Below, piece after piece: positions 36,561 to 44,470 of a DNA stretch of 64,000 nucleotides (positions within the stretch are counted from its first letter, which is position 1; each line of letters begins with the position of its first letter). The stretch is from Glaucostegus cemiculus (Eukaryota). The position numbers and the translations under genes were made by a program. The stretch is from positions 3,844,001-3,908,000 of the forward strand of contig CDPCPM010000215.1 of the NCBI GenBank assembly GCA_976551045.1, written 5' to 3'. The notes under the pieces are model-generated. The model was not told where the DNA came from and did no database searches. It saw nothing but the letters and a program-made list of their open reading frames with translations.

Positions 36561-37099
36561 CCCTTTTACAGCAGGACCTTGCAGTGATTTTAACTTGTGG
36601 ACATCAACAACATTCTGCTGGACAACCTTACTCCAGAAGTGGGCAAGAAGTGACTGACAGTGTGGAAAATTCAGAATTATTTGGTCACATATTCACACTC
36701 AGATTGGAGCAGGGGACAGTTTCTGGATAGAGGGTAAGCAGTTGGGGGGAGGGGTGTGTGTGGGTGGAGTGCCAAATGAGTGGACTTTGGGGAAAGGCCT
36801 AAATTTTCTTCTATTGCTGGAGACTCGCCATCTTCCTTATTGATTGGTCTTTCTAAAGCTTTCTGATATCAGGTAATATAAATAGGACATGCTGGCAACA
36901 AGCGTGGAAACAGAAAGCTAATATTTGTCAGTTTGTCAGAACTGGGCAAGAGAGAAAACAATATTCCCTGCTCAGCGTCCTAACACAAACAAGGGAACAA
37001 TGGGATCCACGTCTACTTAATTAAACACTCCAGTGATCTGGCCTGAAAATGTGGTTGAAAAAAAATCACATGCCAATGATGTCAACTAAATGAAAAAAA

Positions 37100-37541
37100 C
37101 AGTAAAAAAATGTTAGAAAGCAGTTACGGTAGGGGGTAAATGACAGAGAGACCTAGAATTCACCCCTCAGCCTTTAGTGTTTGCAACAGACGAATTGTTC
37201 GTCTGCAACTTGTTGATATGATTTTTTAGCTTGTAAGAATTGTACTTGTATTTGGAAATCCTTTGTAAGTTACAAGTTGTTAAGAGTTACTTATTTGAAT
37301 TAAATGTGTCTCACTGAAAACGAAATAAACTGTGTTTAAACTGCTTCGTAAGCTGGAAGCATCTTCTCCTTGATTGGGAGGTGGGACCCACCGCTCGAAA
37401 TAGTGGATCATTAACAGCTAGACCTTTCCATACAGTATAATCTCTCTATAGTGAGAGGACTCGTAGATCCTTATGCCAGATAGAACTTAAAGCCTTGACT
37501 TAAGTTTAGAGCTCTTGGATGGTACCCTCAATATCATCACA
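37100..37541 (+). promoter_or_regulatory. Putative 5' LTR remnant (R-U5)
   Basis: Ends in CA at 37540-37541, 2 nt before the PBS. It has AATAAA at 37324-37329 and an 8-bp hairpin cagacgaa/ttcgtctg at 37187-37205. The start position is a guess. Confidence 0.55.
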
Positions 37542-37543
37542 GT

Positions 37544-37561
37544 TGGCACCTAAAGTGGTCA
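37544..37561 (+). promoter_or_regulatory. Primer binding site, tRNA-Lys-like (degenerate)
   Basis: TGGCACCTAAAGTGGTCA versus the foamy tRNA-Lys1,2 PBS TGGCGCCCAACGTGGGGC: 12 of the first 15 nt match. It lies about 95 nt before the putative gag ATG. Confidence 0.75.
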
Positions 37562-37655: not shown

Positions 37656-38475
37656 ATGGCTAATATCCTAGTTCTAGCAGTTGTACAAGCAAATGCTGGT
37701 CAGTATTATGAATATAATATTAGGTCAGCAGAAATATGGGATGATACACCCAATGCTCCTCAAATTGATCATAATGAATATGTTATTTTTCAAGTCAGAG
37801 ACTGGAATGATGATGGAGTAGAACACTGAGTAGGATGTAGACTAGATAGACCGAATCCTGCTTTAATACCTACAGGACTCAGACCATCGCAATTTGTAAC
37901 AGATCTCAATAATGCAGCAATAATTCATGCCTGGAGACAACAAATTGGCCCATTTCAAGCTCAACCCTCGGATCACTCACAGTCACAGCGTCCCCATACC
38001 CCCGCTCCTCATCAGGGATGAGGTAATCAATAACCTAGACAAATGTCTTAGGGAATACCTGCCTCCGGCAGGTACATTCACCCACAAACTAGATGGCTGG
38101 ACATGAGTTATAGACCGAGACCTTTACCCCCAACCCAATTCTTTGAGCAACAAGGCATTAGACCAAGTTAAATTTGGTCTAACTAACACTCTCTGAATGT
38201 TATTTCTGTCTCATTTTGAGACATAAATACCATTCAGAGAGCCTGTTGATATTATGAAGGCAAATACGAAACTGACAAGGCACCGTGGGGTACAGCTCAT
38301 CATTCACAACCATCGGAACATGTAAAAGGACAGGACTCACCCCAAAAATCCATTCCCTTCCCTAGAACACAGGGAAAACAGAATGTAAAGAGGAAAAGCC
38401 AACGTTAATGTGATTGAAACAGAACAGGAGAATTTTAGCCATGACCCTGACCTAAATGCCCCATCTCAGGAATAG
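37656..38475 (+). pseudogene. gag: gag pseudogene, apparently internally deleted
   Basis: ATG at 37656 opens MANILVLAVVQANAGQYYEYNIRSAEIWDD...VIFQVRDWNDDGVEH*VGCRLDRP...RQQIGPF, followed by a P/Q/R-rich region. Two early stops are TGA, consistent with CGA decay. The C-terminus KANVNVIETEQ..SQE* is in another frame. The call rests mainly on position between PBS and protease. Confidence 0.6.
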
Positions 38476-40886
38476 GATGCAGGCATACTTTGTCTTGCCT
38501 TTCCGTATGCCAAAGCCTGTATTTTTGGGAAAATTTAGCCATGACATTTTGACACAGGTGCAGACATCTCAATGCTGAATGAAGATATTATTAGTGGTGA
38601 TGAACTAGATGAGCCAACAGAGACAATTAAAATCGTAGGCATACGTGGAAACGAGGTAGACTGCCCAAATTATAAAGTACTCATACAGATATACAGCATT
38701 TAATGAACAATAGAAGTCACCATAAAGTCTCCACACCAACTTGCCCCAGATCATACAAAACCAGCTCTTCTAATAGGATATCCTGGCATTTCCTATTGGA
38801 TTCGTACCATTATCAAACCAAAAACCGATGATATTGTACCAGATGAACGAGACATTCATATCCAGAAACAGTTAAACTATCAGAGCAAAATTAAAAAACG
38901 TCTTGTACAAATGTTGTGACCACCTGCAACAACACCCCAACCACTGTGGGTTGGTCGATATTGAACCAACTAAATCTGGATGCAATCCATTTCCACATCA
39001 GAAACTGTGGTATATGTTTTCCTCCGTTCAGGCAATCTTTACAAGAGACTGTAGACTCCCTCTGTAAGCAAGGAGTAGTGATAAAAGAACCTTCTCGAAT
39101 TAACTCACCCATGTTTGGTGTAGGAAAACCTGACAGACAGTGGCGATTGGCCATCGACTATATTGACCCAAATAAACACGCAGAGCTTAATTCAGTCCAA
39201 CAGCAGTCATTACAACAAAAGTTGCAAAGATTAACTCATAAAAAATATAAATCTTGCATAGACCTAGCTCATGGCTTTTGGTCACACTGAATTCTTGAAA
39301 ATGACAGCCTTTGCAGCTCCTGATGGTTCACAGTATCAGTGGACCAGACGAGGTTTTTGGATTAGTCCACAAATATTTTCAGTAGGAGTTATTCAGACAC
39401 TACAGGGCATACCAAATATTTGTGCATATGTAGATGATACATACTGCACAGCAGATAGATTGGAAGAGCATTTAACACAAATCAAGACTGTCATTAAGAA
39501 ATTGACGGGCAGAAGCTATGTAATTAACATTAAAATATCTCAACTCTGCCAATCAGAAGTAGATTTCCTCGGCATGTCAATTACAAATGAAGAATGTGGC
39601 TTAACCCCCGAATTTAGACAGAAGGTTGCTCAAGTGGGATATCCAAAGACCCTAAAAGCTTTACAATCAATTATGCTAGAACTTTCATTCCTGACTATGC
39701 CTGTATGACAGATGTGCTCCAAAGAATGAAAACCCTGTTGCCTTTACTCCAGATTATTATGAGACACTAGTAAAATTGATGAACACAGTTCAGTTAGCAA
39801 TAGACCTCCAGACAAGTGACCTCAAAATCTCTTGTTTTACATATCAGTGCTTCTCCTAAATCTGCTATAGCATGGGAGAAGAAATACACTATGCCTCATA
39901 ATTTCACCCCAACAGAACAAAAATTTACCTCTTTAGAGTGATGTCTCACTGTGGTGTTCCAGACACCTTTTGTAGTAAGACCATTTCAGGGAGACGAACC
40001 AATTATCATACAAACAGAATTTATGTCTCTAAAGAAATGATAACATTTGGCATTTGGCTTAATGTGGCACAACATCCTTTAAGACACTACTCTGAAATAT
40101 GGTACTGTGATGGGTCAGCAATGAGAGTCCATGGAAATAAATCTACTAGGTTACAAGCAGGAGCATGGATTGTTAAAGGATACTTTTTATCTGAACCAGA
40201 ATTTGAACCTTATGAATTACAAGCTTATCCTTTAGGGAACCATCCAGTGCAATTGCTGAGACTAAAGCTCTAGAGATATGCTTGAGACAAGTAAATACAA
40301 CTCAACCAGATCTGCACTGACTCTAACCATGTCAGGAATGCAGCAGAAAGAGATCTCCCCATCTGGTTGACTACCAGATGAAGAACACAGAGGAAAGCCA
40401 TTTTCACACTTGTCCACATGGAAAGATATCTGAATTATTTTTGACTTGTCCATTAGTACAGGTGTAGCACATCCTGGGACATACTGCAGGCTGTCTACAC
40501 AGCTATGGTAATAAATTAGTTGATGAACAAGCCAAACAAGCTGTTGGGATGGAACTTACTGCGGTAAGGCAGGCCAGGGTTATGGTAGTAACTAAGCAAC
40601 AAAAAAAAGTAATCAAAACAATGTTTTAAGAATACTCCCAGATACTACTCAACCCAATCCAAAAGGATTTGCACCACAGTACAAGTATGGAACTGACTGT
40701 GAAGGTAAGGTTTGGGGATGCTGCCCTAAAAAAGGTAAACAAATACCTTCTTCTCATAAGCGGGAAGAATTAATTCGAGAAGTCCACCAAGGAGTTGGAT
40801 ACAGTTATGGTGGCGGACAAGCCTCTCATGTGAAATTAGCTATATTATACTGGTGGCCTTGCATGTTGACTGATAGCAAGCAATTT

Positions 40887-41627
40887 CAGAATCAGGATCA
40901 GATTATTGTCACTTTCATGTACACACACCCACACACCCAGCATACATGAAGGTGAGATATCGTACTCCACAGGCCAATGTGCAAAGACATTACAGACAGT
41001 AAAAGACAACAGGACAAAAACATCAAAACATTGGTACATCAACCAGCCCCAGCCTCACCCCGCACCGACGACCACCTCCAGCCCCGCAGTCCTACAAGCT
41101 CCGGGCCCACAGTCCGAACCGATGACCACCTCCGCCCCCGCAGTCCGAGTACCTCCACCCCCGCAGTCCGAACCGATGACCACCTCCGGCCCCACAGTCC
41201 AACTACCTCCGGCCCCGCAGTCCGAACCAATGACCACCTCCGGCCCCGCAGTCCAGGCCCCGCAGTCCGACGGCCGACGACCTCCGGCCCCGCAGTCCGA
41301 CGACCTCCGGCCCCGCAGTCCGACGACCTCGACCTCCCGGCCCCGCAGCCCGACGACCTCCGGCCCCGCAGTCCGACGACCTCGACCTCCCGGCCCCGCA
41401 GCCTGACGACCTCCGGCCTGGGCAGCCCCCTCCCCGCCCGCAGCCTGAAGCCACCACAAGACTCCAGGGCCTTTGACACGCTGGGCTCCAACGAGCTGAC
41501 GGTGCCGTCAGCACAAACAACGAATCCATAGAACGAACATCAAGCACGCAGACATCAAGAACAAAGAATAGAAGAAAAAAAAGAGCACAAAACACTAAAA
41601 GACTAACAAAACACATAAAGCACTACT
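40887..41627 (-). mobile_element. Non-coding Rex1/Babar-tailed retroelement fragment with GC-rich minisatellite, inserted in integrase
   Basis: The minus-strand 3' tail gtgacaataatctgatcctgattctg matches the Rex1 tail at 53750-53785. It is flanked by the TSD GCAATTT (40880-40886 and 41628-41634). Confidence 0.85.
41050..41420. repeat. CpG-rich minisatellite (core cctccggccccgcagtccgacga)
   Basis: About 12 variant units of roughly 21-33 bp; explains the overlapping Pro/Arg/Gly-rich ORFs in the track. Confidence 0.95.
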
Positions 41628-42528
41628 GCAATTTGTTGCAAATTGTAAAGAATGTCTGGCCTATAATAAAGGATCAGTTACAAAACCAAATGCACTATTG
41701 CAGGTGTGGCAAATTGATTAAATAGGCACATTTCTGGCATCCCAAGACAACCCATCTTATCGGAGACCAAATAAATATATTCTTGCCATAGTTGATCTTT
41801 GTACGGGATCTATGTAGTTAGTTCCCACTGCTTCTTGTAGTGATACCGCTACCGTCACCGCACTTCAGAACTCAATAGTCCAGCATGCTGGCACCCCTGC
41901 CTGCTTATATGCAGGCCAAGGGTCTTCCTTCATTGGTAAAGGCTCAGGCCATGTGTGAATCGGCAGGAATACAAGAGGAGTACAGCACTCACACCACCTG
42001 CAATCGGGTGGGGCAGTGGAGAGAAAGAATCAGAAGATTAAGAGGGCCCTGGCAAAACTGGTCTACTCTAGAGGTAAAAGACGGACTACACTTGTCCCTG
42101 AAGTTCAGCTATCTGTGAAAAACATGCTACTGGAAAAAATAGGAGTACATAAGAATCCTACACCTTATTTCTTAATAAATAACGTCCACCTAAATACATC
42201 ACTAATCGCGAAATTAGGCCAACCATCACCTACACCTGATAAAACTCTATTCAAGGAATTCAGAGAGTTTATGGGAACCCAAGAGATACCAAAAGAACCT
42301 GATAAGAAAGTTTGGATGCCACATAAAGGCGATTGGGTTCAAGAAAAGAAATTTCATAAAAACAATTTTGACCCTAGTTTCCATCCTAAATGGAAACCTC
42401 CTTGTCTATTTACCCAGATTATCGATGATAGGACTGTGGTAATCGAGACCGAGAGGGGAAACAAGACCAAGGAGATCTGTCTCCATCAATAATATTAAGT
42501 GTGCCCCAGCAGCATTTGTACACCCAGG

Positions 42529-44470
42529 ATGAGTTGGAACCCTTGTATTAAACATATACACGATTCCACCAATAGAACCCCCACATCTGATCGTAGACAG
42601 ATGAGATGTATTGAACAGATAAGACACATGCTTCAATCCAAAAAGCATAAAAATTCCTTTTCACTTGAAGAAGATCTCATGGATATGTTACCCAGAAATA
42701 GTACACCTAAAAAGCATTGTTGTTTTTCAAGCAAGAAACACCCGAACTCCAGAAAGAAATGTTGCTCTTGCTATACATTTCTTTTAATATTTATGCTTAT
42801 TACAATATTATTCAGTGCTACTTTACTTACCATTTGTTTTTTAACAGGTGAAGTAGCATTTACCACAGAGTTTGCCTCATCTGGCTCAGATACCCTTAAA
42901 CTTAATGATTCATAGAATATTAGATCTAGGAGATCTGTGAGCAATGATGATTCCAACTTAAATGCCACTAGATAGTTCTTATCCTTTGGTCATGTGTGGA
43001 CCAATACACTGGAACCCTTTGGCAAAGTGATTGTCAATATGATCACAAGATGGCTTTCTCCTACACATCTTCTGATTTTCAGAACCCTTTCCACCATCTC
43101 CAAGACAAACGTCAGGAGAACAATTGAAAACACTCCACCTGCTCCAATACTTAAGTGTCAAGAAACACAACACTGTCCAGAACAAAAATCCTGACCAATG
43201 TTTCGTGCACAACCCTGTACGTTCAGCCTCTCCATCAATGGTGCACAGTGATGACAATGTATATTCTTCATAAAATGCACTGTAGTTACTCATCATAGCT
43301 TCTTTGATTGCACCTCCCAAACATCAAACATCTACCACCTAGAGGGCCAAGGGAAGCATTGGAACGCCTCTACTATCAAACACCTCCCAGGTTTCCAATG
43401 CATCAACTTTCCAGTCATTGAGTGGAAATCCTGGAACTCCCTCTGTGGGAATAAGTTCAGTGGCTCAAAAAGGCAGGTTGCTGGCACCATAATCATTCAT
43501 TTAGAAATAAACTATATCTCCTGGCCTTGCAATGGCCAGCAATGGCCACATCTCACAAAAGGAAATAATTCTTGGTTTATGCAAGTTGTTGCCAATTTGA
43601 TGAGGTAGCAGGACATTGCTAGGACCTGTGCAACTATATCACAAATACACTCAAGGAACAGCTCATAATTCCATAAAAGAAACAAAGCAACAACTACATT
43701 TATATGCCCCTTATTACAGCCTTTGGTTATTCCAAGGTATGTTATAACCAACAAAATAGTTCTGGCATGCACTTATGGTAGAACTTTTTACATATATTGT
43801 AAGATTGAACAGAAGTTATTTTCCAGAAACTGGTTGAAGGTTTAATGTCCCCAGTTGAATTCACATGGGAGAGGATCTAGGTTTCAATGAATATCTCATC
43901 TCTAATACTGCAGCATTCCCTTGGTACTGCAATGAAATTTGTGCCTGGACTTTATGCTCAAATCCCTGGAGTGGGGTTTGAATCCTTGGTCTTTTGGCAC
44001 AGAGATGAGAGTATGATTCAGTTGACAGACTGCATGAGTCCCACTGAAAGGTCTGATTACTAGCTACCCAGTGCAGAGGTGATTACAATGACCAATAAAG
44101 GATGAGTAATCAGTCATCACCTTTGATTTTAAATGAGGTCAAACGAAAGGAACTGGAAGAGCTGGTCAGCAGATCCCCATCAAAATCCAATGGTCTAGCC
44201 ACACACAGCCAGAACGTTTTGAATGCAGCCCAACAATGTCACAAGTAGTTATTCAGGGGATTACGATGAGAGCAAAGTCACAGTTATTAACATTTGAAGG
44301 AGAATATATTGGAAAAGATATACATTTAGTCTAGACAACCTTGTCAGTGAAATAATGACATCATAAAACATTCTGCTCCTACCGGCGGGTGGATAGGTCT
44401 GTCTTTTTCTTGTTGAACAATTTATCTCTGTTAAATTGATGAAGCCATGATAGTACTTGATCTGAATCTT
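42529..44470 (+). pseudogene. env: env pseudogene with foamy-type leader peptide, internally deleted
   Basis: ATG at 42529 opens a long hydrophilic N-terminus, then a hydrophobic helix CCSCYTFLLIFMLITILFSATLLTICFL and furin site RSRR/SV (42922-42933). Matches to PFV: EPFGKVIVNMITRWLSPTHLLI to EPHPEPIVVKERVLGLSQILMI; LVIPRYVITN (43723-43752) to LVIPKHIYLN; IQGITMRAKSQLLTFEGEYI to LVGIIAKIK...SSGESI; LMKPMIV to YLKPILI. Confidence 0.8.
43860..44027 (-). mobile_element. SacSINE1/DeuSINE-like fragment inside env
   Basis: tgcagcattcccttggtactgcaatg...gcctggactttatgctcaaatccctggagtggggtttgaatcc...cagagatgagagt, homologous to 21840-21965 and 36080-36190. Confidence 0.7.

Follow-up and report, generated by a model that had tools for sequence, protein, structure and literature searches.

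Gag and protease share one reading frame in a foamy-like endogenous retrovirus family that probably makes Pol fused to Gag

The foamy-like endogenous retrovirus found in the window, the stretch of 64,000 nucleotides of Glaucostegus cemiculus DNA analysed here, belongs to a family in which Pol is probably made as a Gag-Pol fusion, as judged from reading frames and junction codons. The gamma/epsilon-type layout, with gag and pro in one frame, a single stop and a G at position +4, is found in five of the ten copies covering the junction, and the rest are without the stop. As to the mechanism, leaky termination at UAG combined with a repeated and tolerated loss of the stop is the best candidate, and we lean towards it with some reserve. 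The original prediction had read the junction of this single copy as TAG readthrough. Its single frame, the lack of a separate AUG and the likelihood of a fusion are retained, whereas half of the copies carry a sense codon and no convincing RNA structure was found.

The window contains one decayed copy on the forward strand, with env truncated at about 43034 and without a 3' LTR (Table 1). Its gag has lost about 870 nt of the capsid region at 37955 by comparison with C137, C60, C7 and C132, and the gag ATG is present in five of ten aligned rows. A 42-nt extra stretch (38168-38241), private to the window among the aligned copies, gives rise to a 53-nt inverted repeat in gag. The host repeat nested in the integrase is GC-rich, arranged in tandem, and very abundant in runs of organism A (X1, X2), with little or none in organism B (X3). 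The first env ATG (window 42490-42531) stands 36 nt past the integrase stop, in the same frame and with no pol overlap. A 257-nt contig of run X1, possibly the source sample, spans 38387-38643 with one letter different. Moreover, the env break and its flank (window 42935-44200) are crossed, at about 92% identity, by a contig of 3151 nt from organism B (run X3). Sequence comparison suggests that the window insertion is also present in this second organism, which seems to carry more copies of the foamy-like family, roughly a dozen as judged from contig depth.

Table 1. Features of the foamy-like provirus, numbered from the first letter of the window.
Feature	Position	Strand	Remarks
5' LTR (portion matching other copies)	36955..37543	+	Matches C169 and C7 at both ends, and C19, C137, C46 and C132 at the 3' end
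PBS, decayed mammalian-foamy form	37544..37561	+	Compared with the PBS of IMG/VR foamy loci L114, L115 and L117
gag, broken	37656..38475	+	Start ATG at 37656; ends with the junction TAG
Frame break of the window copy	38386..38392	+	Short purine repeat, 2 nt below most copies
p3-like Gag cleavage motif (KANVN/V, slash at the cut) and 21-residue acidic tail	38395..38472	+	PFV counterpart RAVN/T
Junction codon TAG	38473..38475	+	10-copy alignment
Candidate stem/H-type pseudoknot, weak	38482..38532	+	38482-87 with 38506-11; 38500-04 with 38528-32
Protease (PR) domain, in the gag frame, broken by later stops	38476..38900	+	Catalytic DTG at 38551-38559
RT and RNase H, frameshifted	38895..40560	+	YVDD at 39427-39438; deletion of about 150 nt at 40045
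Integrase, SH3-type C-terminal domain, interrupted	40561..42492	+	Pfam matches to rve (E 7e-4) and SH3_11 (E 0.0075), with scores below the curated cut-off; tblastn with foamy Pol
High-copy host repeat inside the integrase	40886..41629		Missing from other copies
env 5' part	42529..43034	+	N-terminal hydrophobic anchor followed by RSRR, in a foamy-leader-peptide layout

Searches of the animal's own genome, which give lower bounds, led to 35 regions being examined. Nine of them include the gag/pol junction, which is thus covered, together with the window (WIN), by ten copies: WIN, C19, C10, C7, C377, C46, C226, C132, C60 and C137. The junction is missing in C281, C169, C5, C74a and C114, as well as in all 20 further loci found through the integrase, which were left out of the counts. 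In the pol DNA tree, WIN, C19, C46, C137, C226 and C169 form a star-like subfamily A, the internal branching of which is not settled, followed by C10 and then by subfamily B (C7, C132, C377/C5) and by C60. C169, C137 and C7 are old, separate insertions, as their paired LTRs differ at 88 of 723, 97 of 693 and 102 of 747 aligned positions, respectively. C137 also carries about 2 kb of decayed sequence ahead of its 3' LTR.

Several other arrangements were encountered among these regions. G000:C377 and G000:C5 are 95% identical in pol, much closer than any other pair, and are probably a segmental duplication. Two internally deleted forms (L152, L161, L162 and L163; L153-L157, L165, L167 and L168) occur on several contigs, both with early gag fused to the RNase H region at microhomologies. 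They may reflect either non-autonomous amplification or segmental duplication; their interpretation as splice products was rejected because the ends show microhomology. C132 carries a 60-nt insertion that matches a unit of long arrays, in which it recurs every 17-20 kb (L085-L098; G000:C88, C388, C148), a spacing that appears rDNA-like. L113 (G000:C12) and L112 (G000:C74) represent a second, remoter retroviral family, matching foamy RT at about 30-40% and separate in the RT tree. C12 and C74b were set aside as belonging to another, remoter family.

On the evidence of its RT, Gag and PBS, the window element is foamy-like. The best PDB matches of the RT piece are foamy PR-RT (E 3e-26, versus E 1e-7 for Ty3), feline foamy Pol ranks first out of 1.84 billion representatives, and the RT of the family matches FFV Pol at 45% over 130 aa. 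The family forms a clade (100/99) in the RT tree, inside a group that also contains foamy viruses, P0002 and P0003 but has a support of only 88/79. Concerning Gag, residues 262-310 of FFV Gag match five other copies (best E 1.4e-4), and C7 reads YLLRDR at the YxLRxR motif, to be compared with YELRDR in the newt and NLRPR in PFV. The foamy-type PBS is recognized as a decayed match to three foamy loci in the window, C169, C46 and C132, the tRNA-Lys label of foamy PBSs being taken from a passage of PMC5512871. Similarity of env to foamy Env is marginal (E 0.007-0.4, C132 being best at 0.007), with no Pfam match. The PR matched no Pfam family, including the Peptidase A9 profile, a weak test as the sequence is decayed. 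No relatives of the window junction-PR stretch or RT piece were found among longer proteins, which is weak evidence, and the window RT had no match among viral contigs.

From position 38395, the window reads KANVNVIETEQENFSHDPDLNAPSQE*DAGILCLAFPYAKACIFGKI*P*HFDTGAD in a single frame (asterisks for stops), with the catalytic Asp codon at 38551-38553 and a TAA at 38406-38408 in another frame. The predicted translation and coordinates of 38395..38565 are exact, and the G-to-D spacing indeed equals that of PFV GTKLLAHWD (L117), with eight residues in both. In majority columns, 1683 nt separate the gag ATG from the junction codon, that is, exactly 561 codons. Over this interval, majority-shared stops number 2 in the PR frame versus 38 and 41 in the others. 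Between 37955 and 38900, stops common to at least four of nine copies number 4 versus 18 and 23. Three of these four are TGA at sites with a CpG-decay pattern and the fourth is the junction TAG, the sole widely shared stop without a CpG-decay explanation. The capsid match to feline foamy Gag 262-310 has the phase of the PR frame in both copies checked, and third-position changes in 38395..38472 are synonymous in that frame. The stretch from TAG to DTG was also translated in the PR frame, since subfamily differences at 38476-38560 are biased towards third positions (3/3/8 at codon positions 1/2/3) and the stretch is similar to the FPxxxxxxxGK strand of P0003.

The ten-copy alignment of the junction thus agrees with the predicted sharing of one frame by gag and pro-pol. 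The accompanying caveat, that the gag tail needs a frameshift to join upstream gag, is true of the window but concerns a minority state, the purine repeat near 38388 being short in three of nine copies (WIN, C46, C7) and long in six. For the same reason, a gag ending at the TAA at 38406-38408 off the PR frame, which had been named as contrary evidence, is not what the family displays: the break before this TAA occurs in those three copies only. Regarding start codons, none of the ten copies has a securely aligned ATG in frame from the junction codon to the catalytic Asp, which extends to all of them the absence of an in-frame Met noticed in the window. The insecure ones are located inside a host insertion (C226) or past an 11-nt deletion, in a broken frame (C60). 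The ATG at 38477, envisaged as a possible true pol start, is out of frame and private to the window copy (one of ten), and is abandoned. Judging from these alignments, the family lacks the independently initiated Pol, in a frame other than that of gag, which marks foamy viruses in the strict sense.

At the junction, TAG is found in WIN, C19, C10, C7 and C377, the last being homologous from about 38463 onward only. The other five copies display sense codons, namely GAG (C46, C226), CAG (C132), AAG (C60) and AAC (C137), the alignments of C60 and C137 being locally disturbed. TAG is the commonest state; it occurs in subfamilies A and B as well as in C10, which lies between the two. Among 142 downstream PR-frame codon columns, the most widely shared TAG or TAA reaches two copies, versus five of ten at the junction. 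The first base of the junction codon requires five changes on the tree, the sole such case among 417 non-CpG columns, and 3 out of 643 columns show its pattern within subfamily A. This makes it unlikely that a fixed TAG simply decayed neutrally, and leaky termination needs a further assumption. The TAG is located 21 codons past the foamy p3-type cleavage motif, where foamy Gag ends: KANVN, 21 residues and TAG here correspond to RAVN, 27 residues and a stop in PFV, in which p3 cleavage is placed at residue 621 of 648 in the cited part of PMC3705263.

G occupies +4 in all five TAG copies. Further downstream, a candidate knot consists of a 6-nt spacer after the TAG, a 6-bp stem and a 5-bp second stem closing an H-type fold, with pairing in 83% and 80% of cells, a level equalled at two other sites of 925 start columns under thresholds set post hoc. 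Both stems are weaker in subfamily B, their bases also encode conserved residues, and no secure compensatory change was found in them across copies. The pseudoknot sought downstream of the predicted readthrough site is thus represented by a weak 6+5-bp candidate, without secure covariation. More generally, no stable or covarying structure was found 3' of the TAG: MFE z-scores range from -2.0 to +0.6, folds being no better than shuffles, and Rfam gave no match there, its one match, weak and irrelevant, being at a local inverted repeat. Decay of 7-10% may have damaged the signal.

Four other readings have to be weighed against leaky termination. In the strongest of them, which we hold to be unlikely although it deserves attention, the virus had, or also circulated in, a form with one Gag-Pol ORF free of stops, which only the protease would divide, at the p3-type site, and the TAG copies are Gag-only variants, either complemented in trans or favoured at germ-line entry. 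Sense codons in five of ten copies, in both subfamilies, are in line with it, as are the tolerance of a pure fusion by PFV (PMC3196705, in the passages cited) and P0003, whose Gag (YNLRPR), PR, RT, RH and IN stand in one called ORF. P0003 is, however, as far from the window family as feline foamy virus, and the gene caller may have read through a stop. Besides, the sense codons are of four different kinds, whereas TAG, found across the tree, is more frequent than any of them. Starting from a sense codon costs more changes, with five nonsense hits exactly at the Gag end, compared with two copies at most for the other TAG or TAA codons of the 142 PR columns. The junction could also be a 3' splice site (AG followed by G) joining an upstream AUG exon to PR, the TAG serving as gag stop as well. 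The splice-acceptor check suggested with the original prediction gave a mixed outcome. AG and the next G are each present in nine of ten copies with a variable first codon base, and foamy pol acceptors are called suboptimal in the cited parts of PMC3705302 and PMC7828637. Nevertheless, pyrimidines represent 15% of the upstream 20 nt in C7 and C132 (35-60% elsewhere), the 20 further copies include no product of splicing at the junction AG, and in mammalian foamy viruses the acceptor sits upstream within gag and Pol has its own AUG. Splicing at this site is thus improbable.

A classical foamy layout, with gag ending at the TAA at 38406-08, pol starting from the ATG at 38410 or 38477, and the in-frame picture resulting from decay, is largely refuted by the frame and junction counts, and we give it very little credence. 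This TAA does occur in eight of nine copies, the ATG at 38410 exists in C19 and C46, the latter having the short repeat and a sense codon at the junction as well, and stop/start overlaps of this kind are found in cichlid and killifish elements. However, this TAA arises incidentally from conserved Val-Asn codons, which vary synonymously in the PR frame only, and the long form of the repeat extends across both subfamilies. Moreover, the ATG at 38410 displays, with its preceding base, the TG/CA pattern of CpG decay in both copies, the one at 38477 is limited to a single copy, and this layout requires a separate nonsense hit for each of the five TAGs. Least probable of all, and hardly to be expected, is a Pol arising by reinitiation or from a non-AUG codon past the TAG, or from the ATG at 38507, which is out of frame, and then a -1 slip near 38527. 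This ATG is present in six of ten copies and is followed by a G-GGA-AAA run in some copies of subfamily A, but the slippery run is missing in subfamily B, the PR frame is under coding constraint upstream of the slip, and no near-cognate start codon is shared from TAG to DTG.

According to the preferred reading, leaky termination with tolerated stop loss, translation would begin at the gag AUG and cover about 561 codons, including a capsid region of foamy type, a motif of the YxLRxR type and a cleavage site of the p3 type. The majority of ribosomes would halt at the UAG, 21 codons past this site, yielding Gag, and a minority would read through it and go on to produce PR-RT-RH-IN without a change of frame. 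Cutting at the p3-type site, the protease would then free Pol. Stop-less variants could persist since foamy replication tolerates a full in-frame fusion, hence the five sense-codon copies. We infer the readthrough, the p3-type cleavage and the viability of stop-less variants alike. PFV tolerates a pure Gag-Pol fusion in the laboratory, as described in part of PMC3196705; in view of this result of Swiersy et al., tolerated stop loss in a virus population is therefore reasonable, though unproven.

Comparison with known systems highlights the mixed character of the family. Mammalian foamy viruses (PFV, FFV, SFV) share with it YVDD, the PBS, similarity in the capsid, the p3-type tail, an Env layout with a putative N-terminal anchor and the SH3-type integrase end. 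Unlike in the window family, in six of six loci their gag runs over pol for about 44-50 nt in a different frame, and pol starts from a Met of its own shortly downstream of an in-frame stop. Their Pol comes from a spliced mRNA according to passages of PMC3705302, PMC6669543 and PMC7828637, and their PR motif is DSG or DSQ instead of DTG. FLERVs of amphibians and ray-finned fish (NviFLERV-1/-2, AciFLERV, AliFLERV) are likewise endogenous foamy-like elements, the newt Gag YELRDR recalling YLLRDR of C7, but pol is off the gag frame at all four junctions annotated in supplement 1 of PMC5512871, three of them with a visible ATG. Conversely, gamma- and epsilonretroviruses such as MLV and WDSV combine a gag-UAG-G-pro order in a single frame with suppression of the stop (PMC1224870 and PMC8278194, in the parts cited), although their Gag, Env and RT are unrelated to those of the window family. 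MLV does not tolerate stop loss in the account cited from PMC3196705, unlike what is proposed here. A gag-stop-pol precedent exists in class III with XtERV-S, an ERV-S/ERV-L-like element of Xenopus, in which gag and pol are in frame around one stop (TGA) with proposed suppression. It is non-foamy, with a gamma-type Env, an MHR in Gag and an ERV-L-type RT motif, all as given in sections of PMC8278194. The readthrough signal of MLV includes a strong pseudoknot, whereas the window family has at best a weak counterpart.

Among the proteins retrieved, P0003 (Logan, 1687 aa, on a contig of 10,956 nt) likewise combines a foamy-like Gag motif with Pol in one frame and has a similar N-terminal PR strand and DTG. 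It differs by a called ORF without a stop, is 30-40% identical to the window family, and its placement relative to that family is unsettled. P0003 matches RVP-type profiles, not A9, and is possibly a second lineage with fused Gag-Pol. Used as a query, it found one other relative, P0165, and no IMG/VR locus. P0165 (Logan, contig of 10,295 nt), a Pol of 1156 aa that starts from its own Met, is grouped with mammalian foamy viruses (97/98) and may be an undescribed foamy virus. P0002 (Scyliorhinus torazame GCB66461.1) is a gene model labelled PRDM11 whose beginning is a foamy-like fragment of RT; the annotation has probably picked up an ERV.

The literature searched contained no description of a foamy or foamy-like virus with an in-frame or readthrough junction, although work on amphibian foamy viruses by Chen et al. 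and on cartilaginous-fish endogenous foamy viruses in J Virol may already show it. The broader proposal, that a foamy-like lineage produces Pol as an orthoretrovirus-style Gag-Pol fusion and has repeatedly switched between a leaky UAG and no stop, is tentative, and we would rather treat it as a possibility than expect it. If true, it would imply, together with P0003, that a separately initiated and spliced Pol is not universal in the foamy clade and may derive from a fused ancestor. The window family would be a natural counterpart to the laboratory finding, reported in part of PMC3196705, that PFV tolerates the fusion. A natural in-frame Gag-Pol in a foamy-like family would indicate that the Pol-expression trait can change. 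The junctions in fish and amphibian genomes would then make it possible to test which of the Pol strategies is the older one in the most ancient branch of retroviruses.
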